IMG/VR virus record: IMGVR_UViG_3300042009_000026
Location: 1 to 64,000 of that record
Origin: a virus
Taxonomy: Duplodnaviria > Heunggongvirae > Uroviricota > Caudoviricetes
Reading direction: 5' to 3' (one strand)
Length of the DNA stretch: 64,000 nucleotides
Both the position numbers and the translations under genes were made by a program. Every line of letters begins with the position of its first letter. Positions within the stretch are counted from its first letter, which is position 1. Under the pieces are notes generated by a model. That model was not told the DNA's origin. It made no database searches and was given only the letters and a program-made list of their open reading frames with translations. Shown one piece after another: positions 4,582 through 32,931 of the stretch.

Positions 4582-4953
4582 GTGATGCAATGTTTAACAC
4601 ACGTACTGAGGTCGTTGGTTCTTGTAACCGCATTAGCGGCTGCAACGAATACAATGGCAACAGAGGTGATGGCGGATGGCGCTTATTGTGACAGCTTGGC
4701 CACCATGGCTAAAGCTGGAGCAGAAGCTAAATCCCGAGGTGAGTCTAAGCAACAATGGCGCACCAATCTCCTCTCCCTAAAGGGATACGTTGTGAAGAAT
4801 AAAGATAACGTTCTTTACAGCATTCTTCCTAAAGCGGTATCGGAAGTAGATACAGTCTATAAGAATCGTGAGACTCCTATGGAAACGTATCAAACTTCCT
4901 ACGTCAGCTGCATGACGAATGATTACGGCACATCAGTCGTACTCAATTATTGA
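4582..4953 (+). CDS. secreted/periplasmic small protein (N-terminal signal peptide)
   Basis: MMQCLTHVLRSLVLVTALAAATNTMA hydrophobic leader. Confidence 0.5.
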   Translation: MMQCLTHVLRSLVLVTALAAATNTMATEVMADGAYCDSLATMAKAGAEAKSRGESKQQWRTNLLSLKGYVVKNKDNVLYSILPKAVSEVDTVYKNRETPMETYQTSYVSCMTNDYGTSVVLNY

Positions 4954-4963
4954 CAAAACATAT

Positions 4964-4990
4964 AGTCTCCCTTCCGGGAGGCTTTTATGC
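4964..4990 (+). terminator. Hairpin (GTCTCCC-TTCC-GGGAGGC) + TTTTATG
   Basis: GC stem-loop then U-rich tract. Confidence 0.55.
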
Positions 4991-5008
4991 CCACTAATAA
5001 GGATTTAT

Positions 5009-5575
5009 ATGAATGGAGCATACATCTTAACTGATAGAAAAAGCGGTGTCTTTTACATCGGTAGTTCTAATGATTTCTTTACCCGCCTGAGTCGACACAT
5101 GGGAGAATTGGCTGAAGGAATACATCACGCAACCTTACTGCAAGAAGCATTCAATGCAGGTGCACAGATATCGCATTCCTTTCAGGGCGTCCCGACAAGA
5201 GAGGATGCTTATAAGTTAGAACGCATGTTAATTGAACAGCATGCTGGTAACAAACTACTGGCGAATAAAACGTATAATGGTTATTCACCTGTTATTACCG
5301 AAGAAACAAAGAGAAAGCTTTCTATCTTAAACAAAGGTAAGAAACATACTCCTGAAGTTGTTGCTAAAATGACAGAGTTTCAAAGGGGCCGAGTTAGGAC
5401 ACCAGAACAGATTGCACAACTGGTAAATAGTATTCCACGAACACCAGTATCAATTAATGGCGTGAAGTTTGATAGTGCTACTGATGCATCACGACATTTT
5501 AACATCGGTCTTTCAACAGTAAGGCAACGTGTACACAGTAAAAGTGAACAGTTTAAGGACTGGATACTTCTGTAA
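5009..5575 (+). mobile_element. GIY-YIG homing endonuclease with NUMOD3-like repeats (free-standing HEG)
   Basis: GVFYIGSSNDFFTRLSRH (GIY-YIG), later NKGKKHTPEVVAKM / RGRVRTPEQIAQ NUMOD3-like motifs; ATG 5009 with AAGGA RBS chosen over ORF-track start 4919. Confidence 0.75.
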
Positions 5576-5594
5576 CATTAGCATATTGATATTC

Positions 5595-5614
5595 GGCCTT
5601 CCTTCGGGAAGGCC
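5595..5614 (+). promoter_or_regulatory. GC stem/UUCG hairpin (GGCCTTCC-TTCG-GGAAGGCC) followed by TTATGTCC, no T-run
   Basis: Member of conserved hairpin+YUUAUGY family. Confidence 0.5.
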
Positions 5615-5648
5615 TTATGTCCCAATTGATCAAAAAGGAAAAGTAATA

Positions 5649-5786
5649 ATGGGTGGTCCGCTAATCACGTTGGGTGTTTTTGCACTCTTGTTTGGCCACA
5701 GTAAAAAACATGGTTGGGATAGAGACTGCCTTATTGGTGGTGTAGTGGCGATTGTAGCTGGTGTAGTTATCAATCTGATTAACTAG
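5649..5786 (+). CDS. small membrane protein (45 aa)
   Basis: ATG after GGAAAAGTAATA; hydrophobic GGPLITLGVFALLFG... Confidence 0.4.
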   Translation: MGGPLITLGVFALLFGHSKKHGWDRDCLIGGVVAIVAGVVINLIN

Positions 5787-5795
5787 GAGGTTTCT

Positions 5796-5993
5796 ATGGA
5801 ACTAGTCGTTGCAGTAATGATTATCCTGATGGTACTCAGTCTTGCTGGTCTTGCCATAATTGGCGTCTGCTTGCTTTGGTGGGGAGAGAAAATGCCAGTT
5901 AAGAAGATAAACCAATTCCTATGGTTGATAGGTGGACTGTTTATCTTCGCCCTCGCTAATATGGCAGGGGTCGTTTGGGTTATGCAACACTAA
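5796..5993 (+). CDS. small membrane protein (65 aa, two hydrophobic helices)
   Basis: TAGGAGGT RBS; MELVVAVMIILMVLSLAGLAIIGVCLLWW. Confidence 0.5.
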   Translation: MELVVAVMIILMVLSLAGLAIIGVCLLWWGEKMPVKKINQFLWLIGGLFIFALANMAGVVWVMQH

Positions 5994-5996
5994 CAC

Positions 5997-6028
5997 AAAA
6001 AATCTGAAATCTATATTACTGTAGTGAA
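5997..6028 (+). promoter_or_regulatory. Promoter-like motif A copy 2
   Basis: AAAAATCTGAAATCTATATTACTGTAGTGAA upstream of 4-gene AAA operon. Confidence 0.55.
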
Positions 6029-6054
6029 TATTAATAGACCATTAGGGGTTTCAA

Positions 6055-6795
6055 ATGCAAATCGAACAACGCGATACCAACATGACCCGCACTATGATGA
6101 ACGCTTTCTTCAGTTGGTTCGCGGCAAATGATCTTGGCCGTATTCACGTTATCGTGGACGGCACTCTTTTTGATAGCAAAGCTTTCGTAGACGACATGAA
6201 TGGTCTATACCAGATTCGTCTGTCAATCGGTGCTTCTGCTGTCCGTGGTTTCGGTTATCATGACCACGGCTTCTCATATGGCTGCATGCGTCAAGGCGTT
6301 CATATCGACATGGACATCCCCTATGAAGCTGTTCTAGGGTTTGTTATTCCTACCGGTGAGAACACCGAAGTCATTTTTGAGGTTCCTAATCTGGAACGTC
6401 ACATGCTGAAGCTCGAACAACAGAAAGGTCTGTTGCCTCAACTGGGTAACTTCGCATTCGTAGATCATGAAGGCAAAGCACTGCCTGAAGAAATGATCCA
6501 TGAGATCATGCGTCAACTAGTTCCGGCTAATGTAGCCAAAGCAATCGAACCAGCTCCTTATGCTGTTCATGGTATCGAACCAGAGACCCATGACGACGAA
6601 GGTAATCAACTACCGACCATCACTGGCCTGATGACCCGTAAGCCTCTGGCGCAACGTCCTGCGAAGCCACAGCCTAAAGATGAACCAACTCCACTACTGA
6701 ACTTTGGTAATGTAAGTGGCACTGCCCTGCCAGCATCTAAAGTCAAACGTACTATGCCTGAAAGCTGGTCCGTAATCCAAGGAGGTAAAGCATGA
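6055..6795 (+). CDS. hypothetical protein (246 aa), first gene of AAA-ATPase operon
   Basis: ORF; stop overlaps next start. Confidence 0.6.
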   Translation: MQIEQRDTNMTRTMMNAFFSWFAANDLGRIHVIVDGTLFDSKAFVDDMNGLYQIRLSIGASAVRGFGYHDHGFSYGCMRQGVHIDMDIPYEAVLGFVIPTGENTEVIFEVPNLERHMLKLEQQKGLLPQLGNFAFVDHEGKALPEEMIHEIMRQLVPANVAKAIEPAPYAVHGIEPETHDDEGNQLPTITGLMTRKPLAQRPAKPQPKDEPTPLLNFGNVSGTALPASKVKRTMPESWSVIQGGKA

Positions 6796-7505
6796 ACCCG
6801 TGTGATCTGAAAGCACATATCACGTGCCGCCGCAAATCTCCCCGCTTGGCCGAGATCTTCAAAAAGATGGATGGCAATTCCCATTTCCAGCAATTCGATA
6901 TGTATGAACTGAACGATCTGTTGTTCAAAGAACTTGCCTGGATGCCTTCGTCTCTTTCGATGGATTCTGAAGAACTGTATCAAGTCAACATCCGTACTGT
7001 CCCAATGGTTCGTTTGGAGAATGGTAACCTGCGTGTGTTGTCAATGGATACCGCCGACTATTGGCCTAACCTGAATGACATCACGAATGAACACGGTGTG
7101 TTGACCTCGATGGTTGAAGCAGCGATGATCCGACATGTAATGAGCTGGGGTCTTCGTATTAAAGAACCAGAACTGCGCATGCCTGTGCATTTCACCTTTG
7201 ACCAATTGCGTCAGAACTTTGATGCTGTGGTTGTAGGGGCTGGATTACATTCCTTGGTGGATAACGATCGTCGTGTTCCGCGTACCACGAATCACCTTAC
7301 GATTACCGTGGTTCTTATGATTACACCATCACTGATGTATCAAGTCCGTGATCAGGCTAAAGCACAAATTTTCCTTACCGACAATAGTCTTGGACAACAT
7401 CAGAACTTTGACGAAGTCGTAGACAATGGTAATGAAAGCTTTTTCAACTTCTTGCGTGAACAGAGTTTCGATGGCACAGTAATGTTAATGCCAGGTCTGG
7501 AGTAA
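6792..7505 (+). CDS. hypothetical protein (237 aa)
   Basis: ATGA-coupled ORF. Confidence 0.6.
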   Translation: MNPCDLKAHITCRRKSPRLAEIFKKMDGNSHFQQFDMYELNDLLFKELAWMPSSLSMDSEELYQVNIRTVPMVRLENGNLRVLSMDTADYWPNLNDITNEHGVLTSMVEAAMIRHVMSWGLRIKEPELRMPVHFTFDQLRQNFDAVVVGAGLHSLVDNDRRVPRTTNHLTITVVLMITPSLMYQVRDQAKAQIFLTDNSLGQHQNFDEVVDNGNESFFNFLREQSFDGTVMLMPGLE

Positions 7506-7508
7506 CAG

Positions 7509-8891
7509 ATGCTTATCCAAGAGATACTTAGTCTTTACCACACCACGTTGGAAATGCTTAGTTCCGGGGACTCTACTGTCAAGGGCTTCATGACGTTGGG
7601 TCTTATGGGTGTCTTGGGTTATTTGGGGCGCACCATACCCCAAACAATCTGGGCGTTCATCAAACGCAATACAATCTCATCGATGACGTTTACTCGTGCT
7701 GGTTCATATTCCATGGACATGCAGAACTACGTAGAATTCATGCGTTGGTTCTCGCAATCTAAATGGGCCAAATACGATCGTAACCGTCGTGTTACATTTG
7801 ATCGAGATAACCCAGCCTTCGGACCAGGTACCGGTTTCCATTGGTTTATTTGGAAAGGTCGTTACTTCTGGTTTAATGTAGTACGTTTGAATTCTTCCGG
7901 TACCGATATCGAGAAAGAAGAATTCACGCTGTATACATTCGGTCGTACTACTGCTCCATTCGAAGAGCTGGTGGAAGAGTTCCGTATTAAGCCGTGCAAG
8001 AAGTCGATCCGTATCTTTGCTCCGTCTAATGACGGTTGGAACTATCAGGGTCGGTTACGCCTGGATGCCGATGAAACATTGATCATTGACCCACAAGTAG
8101 AGAAAGAGTTCTTTGGCTCTATTGACTGGTATCTGGCGAATGAACCCTGGTACCGTAAACGTGGGTTGGCTTATAAGCACACCATCGTATTGCATGGCCC
8201 ACCTGGTACCGGCAAGACGTCATTGCTTAAACGGGCTGCACGTAAGTACAAGCGGGATATCCATTTCTTGAACTTGGCTACTCATGGGCGACAGCTAGTT
8301 GATCTGATGGGTAAGCTTTCTCCAGGTGATATTCTGGTCATTGAAGACTTCGATGATGTTAAGTCATTGCATCGACGCACTGGTCCGAAGAAAATGGAAG
8401 TGGGTGAACTGGACATCGGCGACAAGAAACCAGAAGCATTGTTGATGGACTGTGAGATCCAACTCAGTACGTTCCTCAATGTGTTGCAAGGTGTGGTAGA
8501 ACTGGATGACATCATTATTGTCCTGACTACTAACCATCTGGAACTGATCGACCCAGCAGTTTACCGTCCATCCCGTGTGAACAAGTTGATCGAAGTACTG
8601 CCCCTGAAAGATCCGGAAATCAAGCGTTATATCGACACGATGTATGATAATCCTACTTACGATCGTAATGTAATGTATCCAGATATACCAGCTTCTACAT
8701 TGGCCGGTATCTTCATGGAGTATCCAAGCGATCATCTGGCTTTCATTAATAAGCTAAATACGTTGGATGACAAATACGTCGCGGAGAACTACGCTCTACA
8801 GCCAGAGCCCCCGCGCCCTCCTATAAACAAGTCAGGCAAAGATGCCGCCCCAGCAGGGGAACGGGTCCTGGAACCACTAGAGGCAGCGTAA
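7509..8891 (+). CDS. AAA+ ATPase (BCS1-like architecture: N-terminal domain + single AAA module)
   Basis: Walker A GPPGTGKTS, Walker B ILVIEDFDD, sensor region TTNHLELIDPAVYRPSR. Confidence 0.8.
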   Translation: MLIQEILSLYHTTLEMLSSGDSTVKGFMTLGLMGVLGYLGRTIPQTIWAFIKRNTISSMTFTRAGSYSMDMQNYVEFMRWFSQSKWAKYDRNRRVTFDRDNPAFGPGTGFHWFIWKGRYFWFNVVRLNSSGTDIEKEEFTLYTFGRTTAPFEELVEEFRIKPCKKSIRIFAPSNDGWNYQGRLRLDADETLIIDPQVEKEFFGSIDWYLANEPWYRKRGLAYKHTIVLHGPPGTGKTSLLKRAARKYKRDIHFLNLATHGRQLVDLMGKLSPGDILVIEDFDDVKSLHRRTGPKKMEVGELDIGDKKPEALLMDCEIQLSTFLNVLQGVVELDDIIIVLTTNHLELIDPAVYRPSRVNKLIEVLPLKDPEIKRYIDTMYDNPTYDRNVMYPDIPASTLAGIFMEYPSDHLAFINKLNTLDDKYVAENYALQPEPPRPPINKSGKDAAPAGERVLEPLEAA

Positions 8892-8892
8892 C

Positions 8893-9234
8893 ATGGAAAC
8901 TTTTGCACGTCACGATTTCAATGTTTATCCCGAAGAAATGACCTACCACAAAGATCGCTTCTTGCAAAAGGAAGCTGGTTGTGCGGTAGTTACATTTGTT
9001 GGAGCTTTTCATGGCGATACCATTCTGACAAATGAAATCGAAGTAATTTCTCGTGGCGTTGAGCCAGGTAAGATTGCTCGATTCATGGTACGTTGTGGTG
9101 ATCAGGTAACCCATCTGGACATGGATCTAGTTACTTGCCGGTATGAAGCCGAGAGTAACATCAAAACAAAACTGGGTGACGTCGTATTGGTGTTCACCGC
9201 GCATTACACAAACGAAGAAAAGGAAGCTGCATGA
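8893..9234 (+). CDS. hypothetical protein (113 aa)
   Basis: ORF coupled to flanking genes. Confidence 0.55.
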   Translation: METFARHDFNVYPEEMTYHKDRFLQKEAGCAVVTFVGAFHGDTILTNEIEVISRGVEPGKIARFMVRCGDQVTHLDMDLVTCRYEAESNIKTKLGDVVLVFTAHYTNEEKEAA

Positions 9235-10169
9235 TTCGCGTACGCTATGGCTACAGTCATTGTTCTTCGACTATGCCTGTTGAAATGAAACACATGCCAG
9301 GTGGTGAACTCCACCCAACGATTGACAAAGATCACTTGGATGCCAGCGAGTACACAATCTACGCTGATACCAAGAACTCCGATGATCTGTTCGCTATTGC
9401 TCTAGTAGCTAATGCGATCCGTCGCAATGCTGAAGTACCAATCAGAGCACTCTCGCTGGTAATTGGTTATGTACCTTACGCGCGCCAAGATCGTATTGTT
9501 AGTGGCGAAGGTGAAGCTCTGTCGATCGAAGTGATGGCCGATTTTATCAACATGCTGAACTTCAATGCAGTGATCATCGTAGATCCTCACAGTGATACAA
9601 CTCCGGCATTGATCCGTAATGCTAAGGTCATGTCTCAGGAAATGATCTTCAGTGAATTCTTGATCCGTGGTACGGCGGACTATGATACACGGTACGTTGC
9701 TTATAATCCATCCGAGTACATCCTGGTTTCCCCAGATGCTGGTGCAATAAAGAAGACCGAGAAACTAGCTCAGAAGTTTGGCTTTAAAGGTGTGGCGTAT
9801 GCTAACAAAACGCGTAACACACGTACCGGTAAACTCAGTGGTTGCACAGTAGACCGTGTGACTATTGATGGTGAACCAGCTAACCTAGATGCCCTGACTG
9901 GTTCGAAGCTGTTGGTAGTAGACGATATCTGTGATGGTGGCTATACATTCATCCAACTGGCCGAGGTATTGAACACCTTTACCCCAACTAGTCTGGAACT
10001 GTATGTTACACACGGCATATTCTCCAAGGGTCTCGATCCGTTGTATGAAGCAGGTTACACCCGTGTAGTTACTACCAATGCTTATGGCATGGAAGGTAGC
10101 ACGGCGTTGTATGGTTTGGAGAAAGACGAAATCGCAGCACTCAAATTCATAAAAATCGATATTGCCTAA
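9231..10169 (+). CDS. Ribose-phosphate pyrophosphokinase (Prs)-family protein; candidate NARP1 Adps (ADP-ribose pyrophosphate synthetase)
   Basis: PRPP-binding loop LLVVDDICDGGYTF; Prs-like fold order; immediately upstream of NAMPT homolog. Confidence 0.8.
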   Translation: MIRVRYGYSHCSSTMPVEMKHMPGGELHPTIDKDHLDASEYTIYADTKNSDDLFAIALVANAIRRNAEVPIRALSLVIGYVPYARQDRIVSGEGEALSIEVMADFINMLNFNAVIIVDPHSDTTPALIRNAKVMSQEMIFSEFLIRGTADYDTRYVAYNPSEYILVSPDAGAIKKTEKLAQKFGFKGVAYANKTRNTRTGKLSGCTVDRVTIDGEPANLDALTGSKLLVVDDICDGGYTFIQLAEVLNTFTPTSLELYVTHGIFSKGLDPLYEAGYTRVVTTNAYGMEGSTALYGLEKDEIAALKFIKIDIA

Positions 10170-10178
10170 GGATTCCAA

Positions 10179-11990
10179 ATGTCAATGTTTCTCAATGGCG
10201 GCACTGCTACTGACTTCTACAAACCTGGCCACGGTCCACTGTATCCAGAAGGCACTACTCGTAAGTATTCCAACTTCACCCCTCGCTCAGCGAAGAACTT
10301 CCTGCGTTCCAAAAGCTGCTCGGCTTACTACGATAACAAAGTAGTAAACTTCGGCCTGTATGGTACCTGGCAAGAACTGGTTGATCTGTGGGACAAAACT
10401 TTCTTCCAAGTATCGAAGAAGAAAGCAATCCAAGCGATCAAACGCCGTTTCGACAATGCGACTGGTCTGGATGTTATCTCCACCAAACAAATCGCAGCAT
10501 TGCACGATGTAGGCTTCCTGCCTGTGACCGTGTTGTCGATCGAAGAAGGCAACCGTGTCGACATCGGTATTCCATTGTGGGTTATCTACAACTCCGAAGA
10601 ATATCCAGAACACTACTGGCTGGTTAACTACCTGGAAACCATTACCAGTTCGTACAACTGGCAGTGCATTACCAATGCAACCATCGCTTATGAATATCGC
10701 CGTCTGTGTGAGATCTGGGCAGAGAAGACTTGCGATAATAACGATCACGTCAAGATCCAAGGTCATGACTTTTCGTTCCGTGGTATGCCTGGTCCAGAAG
10801 CAGCTGGTCGTTCGAACGCTGGCCACTTGGCTTCGTTCTGGGGTACTGATACTATCCCAGCGATCGATTATATCGAACGTTTGTACAATGCCAACTCGGA
10901 CAAAGAAATCCTGGGTGTATCGGTTACTGCTACTGAACACGCTGTAGCAACTGCAAACATCCTGTCCCGTCTGAAGCACAAGATCCGTGCGCTGCCTGAA
11001 GACACCGTCATTTCTGGTGAAATGATCGACCTGCTTAAGCTCGAATGTGAGCGTGAGTATATCCTGGAAATCATCCTGGTTAAAGTGAGCAAGGGTATTA
11101 TCTCCCTGGTTTGTGATAGCTTTGACTTCTGGGGTGTTATCGAATCTGTATTGCCTTCGCTGCGTGCAGAAATCGAAAGCCGTATCAAGAATGAACTCGG
11201 TCTGGCTAAGGTCGTTGTTCGTCCTGATTCGGGGAATCCAGTTCACGTGATCTGTGGTTTCAAACTGGTCGAATATGAGTCGATGAAAGCATTCGAAGAT
11301 GCATTGCAAGCGTATGGCCTGTGTGCAGTTGAAGGTGAAGCAATTCGTATCGGCGATAAGTACTACGAGTTGAATGCGTTCAATCCTGGTGCTTATGTGG
11401 AGACTCAAGACTTCCTTGGTCGTGAGATGAAACGTGTTGAAGCACTGGGTGCTATCGAATCCCTGTGGGAATCTTTCGGCGGTCACGTAAACGGTAAGGG
11501 CTATAAAGTCCTGAACGAATACATCGGTCTGATCTATGGTGACTCGATCACTGTGGAACGTACCGAACAGATCTTCGAACGCCTGGCTGAGAAAGGCTTC
11601 GCTTCGTCGAACGTCGTTCTGGGTATCGGTTCGTTCACTTACCAGTACAACACTCGCGATACCTTCGGCATGGCTATGAAGGCAACTGCGTGTGAAGTGC
11701 AGGATGAACTGATCGAACTGTACAAAGATCCAAAAACTGCTGCATCCAAGAAGTCTGCTAAAGGCTTCCTGCGTGTACTGAAAGATGCTGATGGGAACTA
11801 TAGCCTCGAACAAGAAGTAGAAATGGATTGGAAAGATCTGTTCTATGGTTCGGGTGAACTGAAGCCTCTGTTCCATAATGGCAAGTTCCAGCGTCAAGAG
11901 TTCTTCGGTGATGTACGTAACCGTATCGATGCTACTTTCGTAGTAGCGAATGACGATGATGGTTTCGACCCTATTGAAGAAGCGGCATAA
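10179..11990 (+). CDS. Nicotinamide phosphoribosyltransferase (NAMPT/NadV)-family protein, 603 aa; candidate NARP1 Namat
   Basis: N-terminal TDFYKPGHGPLYPEGT resembles NAMPT TDSYK...YP start; GTDTIPAIDYIERL region; length extended vs canonical NAMPT; antisense 536-aa ORF is artefact. Confidence 0.8.
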   Translation: MSMFLNGGTATDFYKPGHGPLYPEGTTRKYSNFTPRSAKNFLRSKSCSAYYDNKVVNFGLYGTWQELVDLWDKTFFQVSKKKAIQAIKRRFDNATGLDVISTKQIAALHDVGFLPVTVLSIEEGNRVDIGIPLWVIYNSEEYPEHYWLVNYLETITSSYNWQCITNATIAYEYRRLCEIWAEKTCDNNDHVKIQGHDFSFRGMPGPEAAGRSNAGHLASFWGTDTIPAIDYIERLYNANSDKEILGVSVTATEHAVATANILSRLKHKIRALPEDTVISGEMIDLLKLECEREYILEIILVKVSKGIISLVCDSFDFWGVIESVLPSLRAEIESRIKNELGLAKVVVRPDSGNPVHVICGFKLVEYESMKAFEDALQAYGLCAVEGEAIRIGDKYYELNAFNPGAYVETQDFLGREMKRVEALGAIESLWESFGGHVNGKGYKVLNEYIGLIYGDSITVERTEQIFERLAEKGFASSNVVLGIGSFTYQYNTRDTFGMAMKATACEVQDELIELYKDPKTAASKKSAKGFLRVLKDADGNYSLEQEVEMDWKDLFYGSGELKPLFHNGKFQRQEFFGDVRNRIDATFVVANDDDGFDPIEEAA

Positions 11991-11996
11991 TCGGAC

Positions 11997-12031
11997 GGGG
12001 ACCTTCGGGTCCCCATCCTATTTTCTTTTTT
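11997..12031 (+). terminator. Intrinsic terminator GGGGACC-TTCG-GGTCCCC + TTTTCTTTTTT
   Basis: Seen directly. Confidence 0.8.
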
Positions 12032-12045
12032 GTTGGAGTATGTAA

Positions 12046-12654
12046 ATGAGTTGCTGTGCAGGTTGTGATGATAACAATGTTGAGCGCGAACAATTCCAAG
12101 TGACCTATAACTGGAATAATTTCGAAACCAACATCAAAGAACTAATCGGCAAGGATGTCAAGTTTGTAAATGGTTTGGTGATGACTGAAGACAATGCCTA
12201 TCCTAAAGGTAGCATTCGGACGGAGATGACCTCTGTGGGTGAAAACCATCGGGTGTCCATCTACCGTAACAAACTTCCTTTTGATGAACTCATGGTCACT
12301 ATTCAATTCAATGAGAAGAGTGGGGACGTCAAAACAAACATCTATTGCCTGACAGCCCCTTTCGTCAAAGTCGAGTTGACCCTTACCCGAGTCAAAGAAA
12401 AACAAGCATTGTTTACTCAGCTCGCAACTGGTATCTATCGTGTTACTTCAATAGGTGGTTTCTATGAGCTATTCGAGAAATACTTGGTAATGGGTCAAGA
12501 CCTGGCACATGCCGAAGGCCAGATCCCTAGCATCCATGACAAAGACCAATGGCCGGTAATGGCTATCTTCAATAATCATTCTCCTCTGTTGTCTACGCGT
12601 AATGCCACTGTCATCAATATCCCCAACTGGAAGAATGACGCAGTTTGGCAATAG
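12046..12654 (+). CDS. hypothetical protein (202 aa) with N-terminal Cys cluster MSCCAGCDD
   Basis: ORF; GGAGTATGTAA RBS. Confidence 0.55.
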   Translation: MSCCAGCDDNNVEREQFQVTYNWNNFETNIKELIGKDVKFVNGLVMTEDNAYPKGSIRTEMTSVGENHRVSIYRNKLPFDELMVTIQFNEKSGDVKTNIYCLTAPFVKVELTLTRVKEKQALFTQLATGIYRVTSIGGFYELFEKYLVMGQDLAHAEGQIPSIHDKDQWPVMAIFNNHSPLLSTRNATVINIPNWKNDAVWQ

Positions 12655-12678
12655 TGTGTAATTAATCGGAGAGCTTTA

Positions 12679-14094
12679 ATGAAAGAATATTTGTCGATGC
12701 AACGTGAAGTACTGGAACGTGGTGTTCCTAAGGGTGACCGGACTGGGACTGGTACTATCTCTGCACCTGGTGTTAGTCGTACTTATGACATCAGTGGTAA
12801 TAAGTTAGCTGCAACATCTACCAAAAAGATCCATATCAAAACTGGTCAAGTCGAAGAAGACTGGATGCTATCCGGTGACACGCGACTGAAGTTCTTGAAA
12901 GACAACAACTGCAATATCTGGGATGAGTGGGTTCTTAAAGGCACTGGTATTTATCGTACCCGTACCGTCAAAGAAATGCGGCGAGTTTATACCCGTAACC
13001 ATTTCGGTTGGGCTGTGCCGACCATTTTAGATCCTAGTGCTACACCTGGTGAAACTGATGTTTGGAAGTTGGTCTATGATGGAGAAGATCTTTCGATCTG
13101 GGAATACCCCGCTGCAGCTGATGTAAAAGCACATCATGGCATCCAAGATAAATCCAAAGACAGTAAAAACTGGATGAATTGGTTTGAAAGAGAAGATCCA
13201 ATTTGGATTCGGTTTTATTCCGCACTAGGGATTTCCGATCAAGAAGTTGTAGATGGTGAACTCGGGAAAGTCTATGGCGAGATGTTCCGTAACATCGAAG
13301 ACACTCGTTTAGTTAAACCAGAAGAAGTAGATAGTTTTCTTCTGCGTGGTTTCAAGAACTGCGGGCCATTAGTAAATAGTGATCAATATGTGGTTACTCG
13401 CAATATCGATCAGGTTGCTAACCTGCTACATGACTTGGAACATAATCCGGATTCACGTCGTTTGATTCTGTGTCCATGGAATCCTGCATATGTAGATGAA
13501 CAGGCTTTGCCCCCATGCCATTCATTCATCCAGTTCTGGACACGTGAACTGACACCAGAACAGCGTTACCATATCTACTGTGCGCAGTATAAACGCGAAC
13601 AGAAAGAACTGCTGGAAGACATCGCTAAACGTAGTCGTGCTGACATCTATACTGCACATGTACCGTACCCATTGTCGTGCTTTGTTGAAGCCACTGATCG
13701 GGATATCGACTTCGATGAGTTTAAGTTACATACTTACTTGGATGAGCTCGATGTACCTCGCCGCGGTTTGACTTGCATTGTCTACATGCGATCTAACGAT
13801 GTTTTCTTGGGTGCGCCTTACAACCTGACATTTTATTCTTCGTTGACTCACAAACTGGCACACCAGTTTAACATGTATGGTGAGAAGTTGGTTCACTTTG
13901 TTGGTGATGCCCATATCTACCAGAACCATTTGGAACAAGTTGCAGAACAGCAGACCCGTACACCAGATCGGGACATGCCACGTCTGAAGATTAATGTGCC
14001 TAAAGGTACTTCGATCCTTGATATGAAGTTCACTGACTTGGAAGTAATCGGTTACAACCCTCAGGCGGCTATTGAAGCACCTGTAGCTGTCTAA
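12679..14094 (+). CDS. Thymidylate synthase (ThyA) family enzyme, dUMP-type, with two large insertions (471 aa vs ~264 aa)
   Basis: MKEYLSMQREVLERGVPKGDRTGTGT (ThyA N-term), NIWDEW, LPPCHSF catalytic Cys, RSNDVFLGAPYNL (Asn retained = dUMP specificity), DAHIYQNH, C-term IGYNPQAAIEAPVAV. Confidence 0.85.
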   Translation: MKEYLSMQREVLERGVPKGDRTGTGTISAPGVSRTYDISGNKLAATSTKKIHIKTGQVEEDWMLSGDTRLKFLKDNNCNIWDEWVLKGTGIYRTRTVKEMRRVYTRNHFGWAVPTILDPSATPGETDVWKLVYDGEDLSIWEYPAAADVKAHHGIQDKSKDSKNWMNWFEREDPIWIRFYSALGISDQEVVDGELGKVYGEMFRNIEDTRLVKPEEVDSFLLRGFKNCGPLVNSDQYVVTRNIDQVANLLHDLEHNPDSRRLILCPWNPAYVDEQALPPCHSFIQFWTRELTPEQRYHIYCAQYKREQKELLEDIAKRSRADIYTAHVPYPLSCFVEATDRDIDFDEFKLHTYLDELDVPRRGLTCIVYMRSNDVFLGAPYNLTFYSSLTHKLAHQFNMYGEKLVHFVGDAHIYQNHLEQVAEQQTRTPDRDMPRLKINVPKGTSILDMKFTDLEVIGYNPQAAIEAPVAV

Positions 14095-14104
14095 CAACAT
14101 AATG

Positions 14105-14127
14105 CCTCCCTTTGGGGAGGTTTTTAT
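14105..14127 (+). terminator. Hairpin CCTCCC-TTTG-GGGAGG + TTTTTATT
   Basis: Seen directly. Confidence 0.6.
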
Positions 14128-14139
14128 TCCGGAGTTATT

Positions 14140-14397
14140 ATGCAACAGAATGTAATCATTGCTGTAAGCTTCCCGATCATGGGTCGAGATAGCGTAAAGT
14201 TCGTTCAAGAGATCAAGAATGATAAAGGAGCGGTTACTATCGTCTCTGTTAATACTGCTGACCAAGCACAACTTTTTGGCGGTGAGGTAGGGGCAGTTAC
14301 AGAGTTCTTAAACTACCACGTTAAGCCTACTATGGAGAATACCTGGAAGTTTAATTCTGTGGACACAACTAAAATAAAAGCTGAGGTACCAGCATGA
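14140..14397 (+). CDS. hypothetical protein (85 aa)
   Basis: ORF. Confidence 0.45.
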   Translation: MQQNVIIAVSFPIMGRDSVKFVQEIKNDKGAVTIVSVNTADQAQLFGGEVGAVTEFLNYHVKPTMENTWKFNSVDTTKIKAEVPA

Positions 14398-14903
14398 GTT
14401 TTCGTCGTGAGCTGTCTATTGAAGAACGTTGTGCATTCAGTAATTTGTTGGGTGATCAACGGCTAACCGATATTCCGTCGCGTTATACCCCTACAAGCAT
14501 TCGTTCACTTGGTGTGTTTACTAAAGAAGGCATGACCGTCGAAGCAATGCATACTCGACTGGATCAGGAAGAAGTTCCTCGTTATACGGATAACCCATAC
14601 CCAGAATTTGAAGTAGCTGACTTCATTCAAGCCGCCAATGGCCGATTGTATGCACTTCAATTGCAGGACAATGGTAGTATCAAATATACCCATCATGGCT
14701 ACGTTGAAACAATGCTGGCCAAGGCATTGCTAGGCCACCTGGTAAAAGATGGCAACAACTTGGTGTATCGTCGTGTAGATGATGATGTGCAAGTCCTATT
14801 GACGATTCGTCCCGGTGATTTCTTGATGCGGCGTATGGCTGATATGAACACTTATGCCTATTGGCTGGCTGAACGTGATGGTGAAACTGAGGAAGCAGAG
14901 TAA
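14394..14903 (+). CDS. hypothetical protein (169 aa)
   Basis: ATGA-coupled ORF. Confidence 0.55.
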   Translation: MSFRRELSIEERCAFSNLLGDQRLTDIPSRYTPTSIRSLGVFTKEGMTVEAMHTRLDQEEVPRYTDNPYPEFEVADFIQAANGRLYALQLQDNGSIKYTHHGYVETMLAKALLGHLVKDGNNLVYRRVDDDVQVLLTIRPGDFLMRRMADMNTYAYWLAERDGETEEAE

Positions 14904-15601: not shown

Positions 15602-15670
15602 AAATATACCCGTGTTGATTATTGATTGCAGTGAAGTCTGCTGCTTTCAATAATCCACGAGGTGTATTCA

Positions 15671-17035
15671 ATGACTCAAGAAGTTGCTATAGCTGTAACC
15701 CCTGAACCTATCGTTCAGAAAGAAATTAAAGAAGGTTTCGGTGTTGTCGAGAAAGACCGGAAACTTGCACGTATCGTTATTATCGATGACGTAATTAAAC
15801 ACCCTAATGCCGATGCACTGGAACTCGCTGTAATTGGTGGCTGGCAGCTCTGTGTTAAATTGGGCGAATACAAGAAAGGCGATCGGGCAGTCTACTGTGA
15901 AATCGATTCCCTTTTGCCACTATCGAACATTGAACTATTCGGTTTCCTGGAAGAACGACGTTCTGATAACCGTCGTGTAGATGGTGTGAACTATCACCGT
16001 CTGAAGACTATCAAACTGCGTAAAGAAATCTCGCAAGGTTTGCTGGTTCCTGTTCCGAATAAATTCAAAGATGCTCCAGTCGATACCAACCTGACTTTGG
16101 AACTCGGTATCCTCAAGTACGAAGCACGCGCCCCAATGGAACCAGGTTCGAAAGAAGCCCGTGGATCTGATTGGTACTCGCGTTTGGTCCGCCGTATCCT
16201 GGGGAACATTGGTGGTACACTGCTACCATGGCCTGCCCAATTGATGAAGTCTGACCAGGATCGTGTACAGAACAAAACTGTTGCTTTCGCTACAGCTCAG
16301 GAAGAAGGTGAAGAGTTCGAAGTCACCTACAAACTCGATGGCCAATCGATGACTGTTTTCTGTATCGATGACAACGGTATTCGTACTGGTGTCTGCTCCC
16401 GTAACTACGAACTGGGTATCGGTGGCGGCAAATGGACTTTCGCTGAACAGGTCCGTTACTGGGTTGGTACATTCCTGGTGCGTAACCGTAGGATTCTCTC
16501 TTGGAAGAAAACCAAGAATGAGGAAGGCGATGTCAAGTTTAAGATTCGCTGGAATGGTGTGATCATCCCTGAGTGGAAAGCCAAGACTGAAGGTGGCGAT
16601 AACAACTATACCCGTACTGTTGCTAAGTACGGCATCATCGAGAAGTTGAAAGCTTACCAAGCTCGTACTGGTGAATTCATCAGCCTGCAAGGCGAACAGA
16701 TCGGTCCAGATATCCAATCTGGTTTCGAAGGTGTAGAAGAGCACGAATACCATGTCTTCAACGTATACCGCAATGGTAACGAAGAAGTACTGCCAGAAGA
16801 AGCTCGCGCAATCGTGGCTGAACTCGGTCTGACATACGTTCCAGTAATGCACGAACGTTTCGTAATCCCGAAAGAATGGACTGTTAAAGATATCTTGGCT
16901 ATGGCTGAAGGTCAACGTGCTTTCAATCAGAAGAAAGGTACCTACCGTGAAGGTGTCGTATTCAAGTCGCTGAAACGAGTAATGTCGTGGAAAGCAATTT
17001 CTACGGCATATTTGCTTAAAGTCAAAGACGAGTAA
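15671..17035 (+). CDS. ATP-dependent RNA ligase with N-terminal tRNA-binding-like (Myf/EMAP-type OB) domain
   Basis: N-term VIKHPNADALELAVIGG...GDRAVYCEIDSLLP resembles tRNA_bind OB domain; nucleotidyltransferase motif I TYKLDGQSMTVF (KxDG); GAGGTG RBS before ATG 15671. Confidence 0.7.
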   Translation: MTQEVAIAVTPEPIVQKEIKEGFGVVEKDRKLARIVIIDDVIKHPNADALELAVIGGWQLCVKLGEYKKGDRAVYCEIDSLLPLSNIELFGFLEERRSDNRRVDGVNYHRLKTIKLRKEISQGLLVPVPNKFKDAPVDTNLTLELGILKYEARAPMEPGSKEARGSDWYSRLVRRILGNIGGTLLPWPAQLMKSDQDRVQNKTVAFATAQEEGEEFEVTYKLDGQSMTVFCIDDNGIRTGVCSRNYELGIGGGKWTFAEQVRYWVGTFLVRNRRILSWKKTKNEEGDVKFKIRWNGVIIPEWKAKTEGGDNNYTRTVAKYGIIEKLKAYQARTGEFISLQGEQIGPDIQSGFEGVEEHEYHVFNVYRNGNEEVLPEEARAIVAELGLTYVPVMHERFVIPKEWTVKDILAMAEGQRAFNQKKGTYREGVVFKSLKRVMSWKAISTAYLLKVKDE

Positions 17036-25808: not shown

Positions 25809-26135
25809 ATGTATAAAGACGAGTTAAAGAATATCCCGTCTAAGGAAGACCTTCTCCAAATTGGTCTTGTTAAAAAAACTCGCTTAGTTCTTGAGCATGT
25901 TAAGGAAGAGTTTTCTGAAGAAGGTGCATATGCCCCTTTTGCTAAAGCTCAGGATACTCCTTCTTGCTGGAAGTGGTATGTTGAACTTCCTTTTGCTGTG
26001 TCGGAAATTGAGCAGCATGCTGTTCGTGACGCACTGGCCGAGAAGTTATTTGACCACATCCATTTCAATGACCACCATGCGTTTGAAACGAACTTCACCC
26101 GTATGTCGATCACTATTAACAAGGGCGACAAGTAA
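25809..26135 (+). CDS. hypothetical protein
   Basis: ORF. Confidence 0.5.
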   Translation: MYKDELKNIPSKEDLLQIGLVKKTRLVLEHVKEEFSEEGAYAPFAKAQDTPSCWKWYVELPFAVSEIEQHAVRDALAEKLFDHIHFNDHHAFETNFTRMSITINKGDK

Positions 26136-26464
26136 TGTGTCATATCCACCATGATCCAGATGCAATCATCCAAGCATATACCGATGAACTCGTCGAACGA
26201 GTTATTAATGAAGTCATGAGTGTGCACCGGGAAGGACGTATGCCCGCTGTTGTACGTGTGACAGAAATAGGCCTTGGATTCCAACAATTCATCGCCGAAC
26301 ATATTCATCACAAGTCAGCTGCTGCTAAACGCATTGAGCAAGAAATGAATAGTCTTGGATTCGTAGAAGTTTACTTCGCCAACCAGGAAGTGGATGGACA
26401 TAGTACGTCCATGGAATACACCCTCACCACCCTCGATAAGTTCGAGGAAATGACAAATGTTTGA
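26135..26464 (+). CDS. hypothetical protein (109 aa)
   Basis: ORF. Confidence 0.5.
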   Translation: MCHIHHDPDAIIQAYTDELVERVINEVMSVHREGRMPAVVRVTEIGLGFQQFIAEHIHHKSAAAKRIEQEMNSLGFVEVYFANQEVDGHSTSMEYTLTTLDKFEEMTNV

Positions 26465-26732
26465 TCTGGCCAAGAGTGATGTCTTTAAGGAAGGTGATGT
26501 AATCGTTACCTTCAAAGAGGGTGACGATGAAACGAAAACCAAAATCATTCGCACAATGAGTGATTTGGGGTTACAACAGTGGGCTTACTCCAAACGTGTC
26601 GATGATGGCTGCGAACAATATCTGTTCGTAAGTGATTACGATCAACGTAAGGAAGATCATCTTCGTAGCTGTATGAATTCGTTGTTCCTACCTGATGACG
26701 TTAAAGCAAAGTTGTCGGAACTGGCGGTATGA
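26457..26732 (+). CDS. hypothetical protein (91 aa)
   Basis: ORF. Confidence 0.5.
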   Translation: MFDLAKSDVFKEGDVIVTFKEGDDETKTKIIRTMSDLGLQQWAYSKRVDDGCEQYLFVSDYDQRKEDHLRSCMNSLFLPDDVKAKLSELAV

Positions 26733-27067
26733 CACAGTACCCATGCGATACCCTGGCGGAACAGCTCCGTAAGATGCGTAATGAGTTCTGGTGGCTTACT
26801 CCTGAACATGTGGCACTACCAGGCGAGTACATCATCAATCAGTCTCACGGGCGATTCTACGAGTCTTCAGAAGAACTGGCTACTCGACGTCGTGAATGGC
26901 TAATTAACAATGCGGGTAAGACTGCGTATCGTTTCAACTTCGATGGGGACGCTGAAACTTTATACGTGGGTTCGCTAACAAATGAGGACGAAATCGTCTT
27001 CTCATGGTTACGCGGTGAGGATAACAAACATGGCAAAGGAACTATTCCCGGAGAACCTGTCATTTGA
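26729..27067 (+). CDS. hypothetical protein (112 aa)
   Basis: ORF. Confidence 0.5.
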   Translation: MTQYPCDTLAEQLRKMRNEFWWLTPEHVALPGEYIINQSHGRFYESSEELATRRREWLINNAGKTAYRFNFDGDAETLYVGSLTNEDEIVFSWLRGEDNKHGKGTIPGEPVI

Positions 27068-27208
27068 AGAAGTCTTAGCTAGTGTGGCGGGTGGAGCATT
27101 AGTGCGCAACCGTCATCTGCCTGAGACAAAAGAAATGCCAGAACCCATCCAACAGACGGACCGATTGGAACTCAAACCAAATCCAGAATACCTGGTGGAT
27201 GTACACGT

Positions 27209-27502
27209 ATGAATGCTCGCACCACAGGCATGATCAACGCGCGCGAAAAGCTGCTTGGTGATCTACTTGATGCAAATCAACAAGTCCAAGATAAACTCGA
27301 TGACCAAGATCTTGGTTTTACCATTGATCAAGCTGTCGCAGTTAAAGGTGCTATCCAAGACACCACACTGTTGACGCTTCAGGCCATCGAGTCGCAAGCT
27401 CAGATTTTCCCGCATCAACCACCTGGAGTAAAACTGGGTAACCAACCCTTCTTTGATGACGATGAGTTATCGGAAGCTTATATTACTGCAATCAACTCGT
27501 AA
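27209..27502 (+). CDS. INS-tail family small protein (ends ...EAYITAINS)
   Basis: C-terminal [aromatic]-A-x-x-I-N-S-stop shared with 8 other ORFs. Confidence 0.5.
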   Translation: MNARTTGMINAREKLLGDLLDANQQVQDKLDDQDLGFTIDQAVAVKGAIQDTTLLTLQAIESQAQIFPHQPPGVKLGNQPFFDDDELSEAYITAINS

Positions 27503-27510
27503 GGAACAAC

Positions 27511-27759
27511 ATGGATACTGAAGAACTCGTTGAATCCGTTGCAGAGGCTAATGACCTCAAGCAGAAAGAAATTCTAGATGGCCTGGTCGGTATTCGTATC
27601 GAAGCAGAAGCCATGCCTCAAGTAGAAGGCATTCATCATGCGATCTCTGAAACTGCCCGGTTGTATGAAGGTGCATTCGTTCTGGAAGTAACAGCTAATG
27701 GCTGCGCTACAGAATTCATGGGTGCTGCTGATCGTTACCTGGAGTACGTCAACTCGTGA
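27511..27759 (+). CDS. INS-tail family small protein (ends ...RYLEYVNS)
   Basis: Shared C-terminal tail. Confidence 0.5.
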   Translation: MDTEELVESVAEANDLKQKEILDGLVGIRIEAEAMPQVEGIHHAISETARLYEGAFVLEVTANGCATEFMGAADRYLEYVNS

Positions 27760-28025
27760 TGCATTCTGTTCCTGATGCCAAAGTCATGTCTGCAGCAAAG
27801 CTATTCGTTGACTGGTCACGTAGTGTCGATGAAGACGATTTCGATGCTACAGCACAAGGGCTGGAAGCAGTCATGGATATTCTGGCTAAAGCAGAGATTA
27901 TCCCTCTTGATACTAAAGAGCGTTTGATTGCAACTATCGGTCGTCTTAACGATGAGGAAGATAAGCTGTCACTAGCTGAGTTCTTCGGAGAGACCCATGC
28001 CACTACCGCTACCACCGGAAACTGA
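27756..28025 (+). CDS. hypothetical protein (89 aa)
   Basis: ORF in same tightly coupled array. Confidence 0.45.
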   Translation: MMHSVPDAKVMSAAKLFVDWSRSVDEDDFDATAQGLEAVMDILAKAEIIPLDTKERLIATIGRLNDEEDKLSLAEFFGETHATTATTGN

Positions 28026-28608
28026 CTGGCCAGAGGACAGCAGCCTCGATTATGATGTTGCTAAAGAACTGGCTGAGTTGGGTATTCCGCACCCACCACA
28101 TGGGGGCCAAGGGCCTTGGATGGCTTATGAAACACCATCCTGGGCACTGAAACCAATGCGTGCAGAAATGCATGAATGTTACACCGAACTAATGGGGCGT
28201 GTAAAAAATGACGTCCCCATGCAATACCATGCAGTAATCAGTGATGTCGTACAAGAGGCAATTATTGACACTGCGATTATTATCAACAACAACGTTGATA
28301 TGATCGATGAATCTCACAATCATGTCTGGGGTTTACATCTGAACCTCTTTGACCACCCAATAGGAAGCACTGCAATGACTGACAAAATCGTAGAAGCCAA
28401 CGTTGAATCCCGTGATGTGCTGATCGTAGCAATCAATGATGTTCGTTCCCAAGCCAATGGTGAAGTCACCATCTCTGCTGCTGTTGATCTGGCTATCACC
28501 GGTACTGTGATCGCTGTTGAACAAGCTGTTCTCACCGGTGGTGTTGGTTCCGTTGTTGATCTGAACGAAGAACTGAACAAGAACTGGGCTGAAGCGGTAA
28601 ACTCTTAA
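27997..28608 (+). CDS. INS-tail family protein (203 aa; ends ...NWAEAVNS)
   Basis: Shared tail. Confidence 0.5.
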   Translation: MPLPLPPETDWPEDSSLDYDVAKELAELGIPHPPHGGQGPWMAYETPSWALKPMRAEMHECYTELMGRVKNDVPMQYHAVISDVVQEAIIDTAIIINNNVDMIDESHNHVWGLHLNLFDHPIGSTAMTDKIVEANVESRDVLIVAINDVRSQANGEVTISAAVDLAITGTVIAVEQAVLTGGVGSVVDLNEELNKNWAEAVNS

Positions 28609-28865
28609 TGACAGCTGTATATCTGGAAGAAAGTGGTCTGGGTGTAACACTCAAAAGCGATCGTGACTTTACCGTTATGGAAACGCTAGCGAAGTTTGCT
28701 GATAAAGGTATATCTACAGAGACCTTGACAGAAGTAGCGACCTTCACCGCTAATCGCGCTATCGAACATACCCTGGCCACGATTGAAACAACATTGTTGG
28801 CTGGTCGTAACGGTGGTGAAGATCCGGTGCTCGCTGCTGAATGGGCGGAGGCTATTAACTCTTAA
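28608..28865 (+). CDS. INS-tail family protein (ends ...EWAEAINS); paralog of next gene
   Basis: N-term YLEESGLGV vs SLKESGLFH in next ORF. Confidence 0.5.
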   Translation: MTAVYLEESGLGVTLKSDRDFTVMETLAKFADKGISTETLTEVATFTANRAIEHTLATIETTLLAGRNGGEDPVLAAEWAEAINS

Positions 28866-29149
28866 TGGCGCTATCCCTTAAAGAATCGGGACTGTTCCAT
28901 CTGTTTGACCGTGATCGTGACCAATTGGTTTGCGATGCATTCAAAGACGCACGTGCCGAGACTGGTGCTCTAACCACCGCCTCGGTCGTTGCAGCAATGG
29001 ATCACCTGTACGACAGAACAGTCGGACAAACGTTGTCCGCTTTAGATAGTGTGGGCTTCTTCACGATTGCCGACGTTAAAGCTGGAACAATCACCGATAT
29101 CGTAGAACAAGACATGGCGGACCAGTGGTTCGCTGCAATCAATTCGTAA
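28865..29149 (+). CDS. INS-tail family protein (ends ...DQWFAAINS)
   Basis: Shared tail and N-term with 28608 ORF. Confidence 0.5.
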   Translation: MALSLKESGLFHLFDRDRDQLVCDAFKDARAETGALTTASVVAAMDHLYDRTVGQTLSALDSVGFFTIADVKAGTITDIVEQDMADQWFAAINS

Positions 29150-29158
29150 GGAAACAAG

Positions 29159-29506
29159 ATGCTCCCTGTATATTGGCAAGGTAGTGTAATTGGCGCAGTC
29201 ATGGGCCTCATCGTGATCGCTGTGTTTGTTACATGGTTGATCCGTTCCAAAGCTGAATGGCTGGTGTGGTTTACTAAACGTACCCGCTGGTTGACTGCAG
29301 TATCGCTCCCGTTGATCTGGCTGCTTACATTCGTGAACATCGGTATCCACAATGTGGAAGGTGATCGTGCTAGCTTTGACCAAGTAGGTAAGTTAGTAGA
29401 TAAAGATATCCCTAAGGTTACTCGGGATACACTTTCGCCAGAATCCGTAAAGAAAGCAGCTGAAGAATCTCGCAAAGAGATCGATGCTGGTAATCTGAAC
29501 AAGTAA
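29159..29506 (+). CDS. membrane protein (115 aa, 2 TM helices)
   Basis: MLPVYWQGSVIGAVMGLIVIAVFVTWLI... Confidence 0.5.
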   Translation: MLPVYWQGSVIGAVMGLIVIAVFVTWLIRSKAEWLVWFTKRTRWLTAVSLPLIWLLTFVNIGIHNVEGDRASFDQVGKLVDKDIPKVTRDTLSPESVKKAAEESRKEIDAGNLNK

Positions 29507-29548
29507 TCCCCACGCTGTACACCATTCGAATTCAAAAGGAAATGTTGC

Positions 29549-30412: not shown

Positions 30413-30414
30413 TA

Positions 30415-30770: not shown

Positions 30771-30775
30771 CAGAC

Positions 30776-30812
30776 GCCTCCCTTCGGGGAGGCTTTCTGC
30801 CATTTTCTTTTG
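30776..30812 (+). terminator. Hairpin GCCTCCC-TTCG-GGGAGGC + U-rich tract
   Basis: Seen directly. Confidence 0.65.
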
Positions 30813-31090: not shown

Positions 31091-31095
31091 ACAAA

Positions 31096-32323: not shown

Positions 32324-32385
32324 GCTTTGTGTGATCTTATGTATCTACGTTTGTAGATCTCATTCTGATCACAAAGGAGTCAATA

Positions 32386-32925: not shown

Positions 32926-32931
32926 TATATT

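Follow-up and report, generated by a model that had tools for sequence, protein, structure and literature searches.

The DNA considered here is a 64,000-nt window (the whole stretch that was analysed, positions 1 to 64,000 of the IMG/VR virus record IMGVR_UViG_3300042009_000026), and within it we are concerned with two adjacent, co-oriented genes whose products resemble ribose-phosphate pyrophosphokinase (Prs) and nicotinamide phosphoribosyltransferase (NAMPT). They are treated as a candidate module of NAD+ reconstitution pathway 1 (NARP1), and are called adps and namat after the two enzymes of that pathway. The original prediction, made from the sequence alone, had placed a 312-aa Prs homologue ahead of a 603-aa NAMPT homologue, and both open reading frames (ORFs) are indeed present at those positions on the plus strand, with a spacer of 9 nt (10170-10178). 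The start called by JGI for the second ORF lies two codons later and would give a protein of 601 aa, but the spacing from the Shine-Dalgarno (SD)-like sequence favours the earlier start. From the overlaps between stop codons, start codons and SD-like sequences (Table 1), adps and namat appear to be translationally coupled, and they occupy what looks like the 3' end of a transcription unit closed by a hairpin terminator. The hairpin directly 3' of namat is the likely end of that unit; every terminator-like site on the plus strand between 6055 and 11990 has a stem less rich in G-C pairs (at best 6/7). A sigma-70 promoter scan of 5400-14600 returned six sites, against 14.7 in shuffled sequence, and is uninformative because a jumbo phage may use its own RNA polymerase.

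At the nucleotide level the window is 77-80% identical to deposited phages, and over part of the NAMPT-like gene only, the best match being Pseudomonas jumbo phage Psa21. A 317,367-bp JGI contig carries an identical protein, and the phage, which is uncultivated, is a jumbo phage whose host is most likely Pseudomonas. Psa21 and D6, and RVTF4 within the limits of its record, have the same order of genes, namely an AAA+ ATPase, a 113-aa ORF, adps, namat, an ORF of about 200 aa, thyA and, further on, an RNA ligase. In tblastn comparisons the Namat protein is 79%, 74%, 69% and 63% identical to those of Psa21, D6, RVTF4 and PS119XW, and this group also has the insertions and long clamp loop of the window Namat that are described below. 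The corresponding values for Adps are 48%, 42%, 51% and 43%, and no deposited phage protein reaches 52% identity to the window Adps, which is thus strongly diverged. Within this lineage, then, Namat is far better conserved than its partner. Tables S1 and S2 of Osterman et al. (10.1101/2024.02.11.579819) list the Namat genes of PS119XW and of Psa21 (gene 304) as 'Adps-associated', the Psa21 gene not being labelled Nmnat-associated, and include Psa21 gene 303 among the Prs/Adps entries; the lineage is thus already catalogued as NARP1.

In NARP1, a Prs-like enzyme, Adps, pyrophosphorylates ADP-ribose (ADPR), and a Nampt-like enzyme, Namat, joins the resulting ADP-ribose pyrophosphate (ADPR-PP) to nicotinamide (NAM) to give NAD+; Adps forms a phage clade of which 97% of genes adjoin Namat, while the KVP40-type Nampt clade travels with an NMN adenylyltransferase (Nmnat) as NARP2, and no phage was found to carry both pathways (10.1101/2024.02.11.579819). 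The same study recognised NARP1 by Prs-like and Nampt-like genes within ten genes of each other (10.1101/2024.02.11.579819); in the window they are neighbours on one strand. Crystal structures of SPbetaL1 Namat (9W5X/9W5W) define a selectivity clamp, in which a selectivity-clamp loop (SCL) of variable sequence is paired with a conserved helix that bears the signature GSX-phi-X-phi-X-phi-TRD (PMC12774641). Structures of Adps from phage ICP1 (apo, with ADPR/ATP and with ADPR-PP/AMP) identify the catalytic Lys185 and acceptor-site residues R87, H121, D161, D212 and D213, and show that the family has a remodelled pyrophosphate (PP) loop (C215-S220) and has lost both the alpha11-alpha12 module and the allosteric sites of Prs (PMC13586617). 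The enzymology and anti-defence role of NARP1 are treated in these three sources (10.1101/2024.02.11.579819, PMC12774641, PMC13586617).

For both proteins the family assignment is well outside what chance would give. The 603-aa protein matches the NAPRTase family, NCBIfam PRK09198 (440 bits, cut-off 405) and phrog_448 (562 bits), and its top sequence matches in the PDB are SPbetaL1 Namat (9W5X/9W5W, 362.6 bits), H. ducreyi NadV (312 bits) and the animal NAMPTs (about 158 bits). In phmmer comparisons it scores 363 bits with SPbetaL1 Namat and 345 with FADO Namat, against 138 with KVP40 Nampt and 93 with RB16 Nampt. Its selectivity-clamp helix (SCH) has the same letters as those of SPbetaL1 and FADO, with F486 and Y490, at positions 3 and 7 of the signature, predicted to stack on adenine. 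In an alignment that also included Psa21, RVTF4 and Centimanus, KVP40 Nampt reads GGGLLQQLDRD and RB16 Nampt GGGLLQEVTRD at this helix. The catalytic core is kept (D12, Y14, F198, R201, D224, R348 and D350, for SPbetaL1 D13, Y15, F189, R192, D215, R306 and D308), and the catalytic histidine, H254, is invariant in 51 homologues. The published contact residues map to D12, Y14, F198, S199, R201, D224, A251, R348 and D350, and further to G454, D455, G484, S485, F486, Y490, T492, R493 and D494; SPbetaL1 A362 is replaced by S456, as it is in FADO, and all residues contacting NAM, the ribose phosphate and adenine are either conserved or conservatively substituted in the way seen in FADO. In the loop half of the clamp K39 occupies the third position, opposite SPbetaL1 R40 in the alignment; this is again the FADO state, and Lys is among the residues (Arg, Lys or Tyr) expected there to provide or precede an adenine-stacking residue, although the loop is longer than in the crystallised enzyme. 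An AlphaFold2 (AF2) model of the protein, built from 51 sequences, has a predicted local distance difference test (pLDDT) score of 92.1 and a predicted TM-score (pTM) of 0.90, and its core superposes on 9W5X at a TM-score of 0.95 (Foldseek).

The 312-aa protein matches Pribosyltran, Pribosyltran_N and phrog_619 (247 bits), yet lies under every curated NCBIfam cut-off for Prs (101.3 against 113 for TIGR01251, and 37-95 against 296-536 for the equivalogs). In phmmer comparisons it scores 120 bits with Bas63 Adps, 79 with FADO and 69 with SPbetaL1, against 42 with E. coli Prs. The catalytic lysine is K193, aligned with SPbetaL1 K162 and ICP1 K185, and the acceptor-site residues R85, H120, D169, D231 and D232 are the counterparts of ICP1 R87, H121, D161, D212 and D213. 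The PP loop, C234-D235-G236-G237-Y238-T239 followed by F240, is of the Adps type and not the I-D-T-G-G-T-L of Prs; in the diagnostic columns Adps proteins have C (16/21), G (17/21) and F (21/21), where Prs proteins have I, T and L (8/8 each). On alignment the Prs C-terminal alpha11-alpha12 helices have no counterpart, similarity stopping before the Prs AEAIRRISNEESISAMF segment, and the arginines of the allosteric regulatory flexible (RF) loop, R102 and R105 in E. coli, appear to have been lost to S91 and G94. A search for Adps-specific substitutions had been proposed at the outset, and the catalytic lysine, the PP loop, the missing C-terminal helices and the missing RF-loop arginines all match Adps. 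The phylogeny proposed alongside it places the Prs-like protein with verified Adps and apart from gammaproteobacterial Prs. A neighbour-joining (NJ) tree, bootstrapped in numpy, was built on eight Prs and 18 phage Adps, 11 of which come from Osterman Table S1; in it the Adps-Prs split has 100% support and the window protein falls within the most recent common ancestor of the verified SPbetaL1, FADO and Bas63 enzymes, with RVTF4 and Psa21 as its nearest neighbours.

The NARP1 loci of SPbetaL1 and FADO have adps followed by namat, the same clamp motif, and conserved catalytic and NAD+-contact residues; they differ in that their hosts are Gram-positive and the window phage is of Pseudomonas type. 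Identity to SPbetaL1 is 43% for Namat and about 29% for Adps, and the window Namat is 112 aa longer. ICP1 Adps, from a Vibrio phage, shares the catalytic lysine, the acceptor residues, the C-D-G start of the PP loop with its invariant phenylalanine (ICP1 F221) and the absence of alpha11-alpha12, but A218-A219-S220 of its PP loop is G-Y-T in the window protein. E. coli Prs has the same fold and core catalytic residues at 22% identity, while its I-D-T PP loop and C-terminal helices are absent from the window protein.

We conclude that the pair is very probably a NARP1 module, Adps plus Namat, of an uncultivated phage of about 317 kb and Pseudomonas type, related to Psa21, D6 and RVTF4. It adds an example, with slight decorations, to a system already known, and does not constitute a new one. 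The NARP1 reading first offered for these genes is supported by the published sequence criteria that separate NARP1 from Prs plus NadV salvage, namely by the clamp, the Adps features, the phylogeny, the lack of an Nmnat in the window and the prior cataloguing of relatives.

Several observations nevertheless count against this assignment. H. ducreyi NadV (9KE8), a structure deposited under that name in complexes with NMN (nicotinamide mononucleotide) and NAM, scores 312 bits, and overall similarity is therefore not decisive, the Namat assignment resting on the clamp motif. This enzyme has the same fold and core residues, but its clamp reads GAQTYQRNTRD, with Q and R at positions 3 and 7 instead of F and Y. 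The SCL of the window protein is about eight residues longer than that of the crystallised Namat, and the adenine-stacking residue of that loop is not assignable from sequence. The tree was made by NJ with an outgroup of gammaproteobacterial Prs only (at least 80% identical to E. coli Prs), with no Gram-positive or archaeal Prs. Of the three residues through which ICP1 Adps contacts adenine, two are replaced in the window protein (F18 is M22 and F92 is V90), but these positions do not discriminate Adps from Prs, since 92 varies across Adps and 18 is a phenylalanine in E. coli Prs also. The search for an Nmnat spans 64 of about 317 kb, and such a gene may lie elsewhere in the genome. Finally, a secondary role in salvage is possible because SPbetaL1 Namat also makes NMN from phosphoribosyl pyrophosphate (PRPP) in vitro. 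As an observation apart from the window, H. ducreyi NadV (9KE8/9KEO) is much closer to phage Namat than to animal NAMPT, and its half-Namat clamp helix hints at an origin from the Namat branch.

By analogy with the characterised enzymes, the pair would act on the products of a host NADase of the SIR2, TIR or SEFIR kind, which would split NAD+ into ADP-ribose and nicotinamide. Adps would then move the beta,gamma-pyrophosphate of ATP onto the 1'' hydroxyl of ADP-ribose, with K193 as the catalytic residue, to give ADPR-PP. Namat, presumably a dimer like SPbetaL1 Namat, would exchange the pyrophosphate for nicotinamide and so restore NAD+ directly, and a grip on adenine by the F486/Y490 helix and the K39 loop would favour ADPR-PP over PRPP. 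The phage is predicted to resist NAD+ depletion of the SIR2, TIR and SEFIR types; no resistance is predicted to aRES defence, which involves ADP-ribose-1''-phosphate (ADPR-1P), because no Macro phosphatase is found in the window. With this phage, the approximately 4% of phages that have NARP1 gain a further uncultivated jumbo phage of Pseudomonas type. Automatic annotation still labels such a pair 'ribose-phosphate pyrophosphokinase / nicotinamide phosphoribosyltransferase', yet three published signatures suffice to tell NARP1 from Prs/NadV salvage in raw sequence: the clamp helix of Namat, the PP loop of Adps and the lack of the C-terminal module of Prs.

That labelling is in essence the principal alternative. 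In classical salvage, the Prs-like protein would turn ribose-5-phosphate into PRPP, the NAMPT-like protein would combine that PRPP with nicotinamide into NMN, and an NMN adenylyltransferase of the host or from a distant part of the phage genome would complete NAD+, following the logic of NARP2 and KVP40. Pfam, NCBIfam and database names all fit this scheme, the PRK09198 cut-off being passed and the second protein being named nicotinamide phosphoribosyltransferase, and it can draw on the PRPP-to-NMN activity that SPbetaL1 Namat keeps in vitro and on the fairly close relationship to H. ducreyi NadV. However, the clamp helix is Namat-type and not GGGLLQ, and the first protein, besides falling short of each Prs threshold, combines an Adps PP loop with the loss of Prs regulatory elements; SPbetaL1 Adps itself gave no measurable product in a Prs-type assay. 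The original prediction had seen no NMNAT or NatV in the window, which still holds: among 95 window ORFs scanned with Pfam there was no domain of the CTP_transf_like (Nmnat), Nudix, Macro, RyR, PnuC or NadR type, and tblastn of KVP40 NatV, a sequence recovered via a published primer, gave no match to the window (best E = 2.8). About 253 kb of the genome lies outside the window and could hold the missing step, but NatV homologues follow the host range of NARP2. KVP40 NatV has 480 phage homologues, with Klebsiella, Vibrio, Aeromonas and Caulobacter among the hosts and Pseudomonas outside the ten leading genera, while Adps is present in 195 Pseudomonas phage records, and Osterman et al. found the two pathways to be mutually exclusive. 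Taken together, we consider classical salvage very improbable.

Other assignments within the known range can be set aside more briefly. A housekeeping Prs is rejected for the 312-aa protein, given the failed TIGR01251 and equivalog cut-offs and the Adps-type PP loop and C-terminus. NARP2, comprising KVP40 NadV and the Nmnat-Nudix protein NatV, has the NAMPT fold and the NAD+-restoring purpose in common with the window pair, but it requires an Nmnat and has no Prs-like partner, and KVP40 Nampt is only 28% identical; it is rejected on the Namat-type clamp, the presence of Adps and the lack of a NatV-like gene in the window. NARP1-AP (Adps-Adpp-Namat, Vibrio phage Gary) and the RyDEP NARP1 of mycobacteriophage DyoEdafos share the Adps and Namat core, but add a Macro-domain ADPR-1P phosphatase (Adpp) and a RyR-domain glycosidase of cyclic ADP-ribose (RyDEP) respectively, and neither domain is found in the scanned window ORFs. 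NARP3, a pair of PnuC-like nicotinamide riboside transporter and NadR-like kinase/adenylyltransferase (PMC13464706), is likewise an NAD+-restoring counter-defence module of phages (Bas30), and is rejected as neither of its domains occurs in the 95 ORFs.

Table 1. Features of the adps-namat locus and its flanks, in window coordinates.
Feature	Coordinates	Strand	Remarks
Four tightly coupled upstream ORFs	6055..9234	+	246 aa, 237 aa, 460 aa and 113 aa; context outside NARP1
BCS1_N + AAA ATPase	7509..8891	+	460 aa
113-aa ORF	8893..9234	+	all-beta sandwich; fold uninformative, generic matches only
Coupling signal upstream of adps	9220..9234	+	SD-like AAGGAAG at 9220-9226; adps ATG (9231) overlaps stop TGA of the 113-aa ORF (ATGA, 9231-9234)
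adps, Prs-like ADP-ribose pyrophosphokinase (predicted)	9231..10169	+	312-aa ORF
adps stop and namat SD	10167..10181	+	adps TAA overlaps SD-like AAGGA (10168-10172), 6 nt ahead of namat ATG
namat, NAMPT-like nicotinamide ADP-ribose transferase (predicted)	10179..11990	+	603-aa ORF
Selectivity-clamp loop (SCL, beta1-beta2 loop)	10287..10337	+	aa 37-53, from alignments; in 50/50 sampled long-form homologues
Namat insertion A	10962..11066	+	aa ~262-296; with its flanks a long helical hairpin (H254-270, H280-302), pLDDT 94-97
Namat insertion B	11265..11444	+	aa ~363-422; small alpha/beta subdomain after the RPDSG strand, pLDDT mostly 92-96
Selectivity-clamp helix (SCH)	11628..11660	+	GSFTYQYNTRD, aa 484-494; same letters as SPbetaL1 and FADO Namat
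Intrinsic-terminator-like element	11997..12031	+	GGGGACC-TTCG-GGTCCCC hairpin, then T-rich tract, directly 3' of the namat stop
202-aa ORF	12046..12654	+	3' of the terminator-like hairpin

The one feature of the module that departs from the characterised examples is the length of Namat. It had been put at about 120 aa above that of canonical enzymes; the protein is longer, but the excess is nearer 106-112 aa (603 aa against 491 for SPbetaL1 Namat and 497 for KVP40 NadV). Relative to SPbetaL1 Namat, the sources of the extra length are eight residues in the SCL, insertion A, a six-residue insertion near aa 338, insertion B and a short C-terminal tail that varies between homologues, and most of it is due to the longer clamp loop and the two larger insertions. 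Insertion A is missing from the aligned SPbetaL1, FADO, KVP40 and RB16 proteins. The predicted secondary structure of insertion B comprises E363-366, H369-384, E388-391, E394-398, H409-412 and E413-417. Among 50 sampled long-form homologues, insertion A is present in 49 and insertion B in 44, and either F or Y invariably occupies clamp position 3. Mean identity among homologues is 34% for insertion A and 21% for insertion B, compared with about 60% for the core, which indicates that the insertions evolve faster. Long forms of about 570-690 aa make up more than 100 database clusters, many of them on contigs of 200-325 kb, and neither the insertions nor jumbo phages are mentioned in the paper on the Namat structure (PMC12774641).

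From the alignments and the AF2 model, the additional 110 aa or so appear to be lineage-typical decorations on an otherwise canonical Namat core. That the long-form Namat of jumbo phages is a functionally distinct subfamily, in which the insertions do something that the enzymes of about 490 aa do not, we regard as doubtful. Were it so, the insertions might dock on the Adps hexamer and channel the hydrolysis-prone ADPR-PP, alter oligomerisation, serve in regulation or evade host inhibitors. A long-form subfamily with two ordered insertions is the only element here that is even mildly new. Some long-form homologues (P0030, P0064 and P0102) are as long as about 890-900 aa, their NAPRTase match falling into two parts, and one of these has a weak Hint-domain match at residues 352-455, which suggests inteins in the Namat genes of related jumbo phages.

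Upstream of adps, the ORFs between 6055 and 9234 overlap or are separated by 1-3 nt, and all four are probably co-transcribed with adps-namat. The original prediction had proposed that this operon, which includes the AAA+ ATPase, might be functionally linked to the pair; the tight coupling stands, but the functional link is not supported, as homologues of the ATPase lie far from adps elsewhere. With the 460-aa protein as tblastn query, these homologues were found in 162 jumbo-phage records, phiKZ-like phages included, and in the four records with both genes, representing three phage types (PS119XW, PA1C, KpLz_1_41 and FBKp24), the distance to adps is 23-37 kb; nor is the ATPase present in the NARP1 neighbourhood of Centimanus. 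As a component of NARP1 it is rejected on this wide distribution and distance. The 246-, 237-, 113- and 202-aa ORFs have no counterpart beside either the ATPase or NARP1 in PS119XW, and the small upstream ORFs are found only in the Psa21/D6/RVTF4 lineage.

An extended NARP1 might still be envisaged, in which the 113-aa ORF, the 202-aa ORF or the AAA+ operon feeds or regulates the pathway in the manner of Adpp in NARP1-AP or of RyDEP. Accessory genes inside other NARP1 operons are precedents for this, and the ATGA overlap of the 113-aa ORF with adps, the lack of any comparably GC-rich terminator-like stem from 6055 to the end of namat and the gene order kept among the close relatives are all compatible with it. 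Yet no Macro or RyR domain (PF01661, PF02026) was detected in the flanking or in any other window ORFs, and the 113-aa, 202-aa and AAA+ ORFs do not accompany NARP1 in PS119XW or Centimanus. The 202-aa protein, which lies beyond the terminator, belongs to a family of 15 clusters among 1.84 billion representatives (exhaustive HMMER; a word-indexed search returned none), and the family profile has no match in PDB or Pfam. An accessory role for the neighbours of adps-namat is not supported, and we give the extended module scarcely any credence. In the 202-aa family an MSCCxxC motif at the N-terminus is almost invariant, and W195 and W201 are conserved.

Beyond the module and its neighbours, the window carries further genes of some interest. 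Thymidylate synthase (12679-14094, plus strand) is 471 aa long, about 200 aa over the Pfam and NCBIfam models of some 265 aa, its match being split into two or three stretches, and this long form is common to Psa21, D6 and RVTF4 (68%, 52% and 50% identity). Just upstream of the AAA+ operon, 4919-5575 (plus strand) encodes a homing endonuclease of the GIY-YIG or I-TevI-like kind (GIY-YIG, NUMOD3 and I-TevI DNA-binding domains; phrog_314), and none of the products annotated in the flank examined ahead of that operon in Psa21 and D6 suggests a counterpart. RNA-repair genes are scattered over 15662-17035 (plus), 34906-36138 (plus) and 54332-55660 (minus), the set comprising an RNA ligase that carries a PHA02142 OB domain, an HD-domain enzyme resembling CCA-adding enzymes or poly(A) polymerases, and an RtcB ligase (E = 1.9e-127); the gene immediately 5' of adps in PS119XW codes for a ligase of the RtcB type. 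Weak matches to the PhiKZ major capsid protein (PF25620, E = 6.8e-5) and to Big_2 fall in 25949-42129, and 42129-63723 has an alginate lyase match (PF08787, E = 2e-38), which is compatible with a Pseudomonas-type host.

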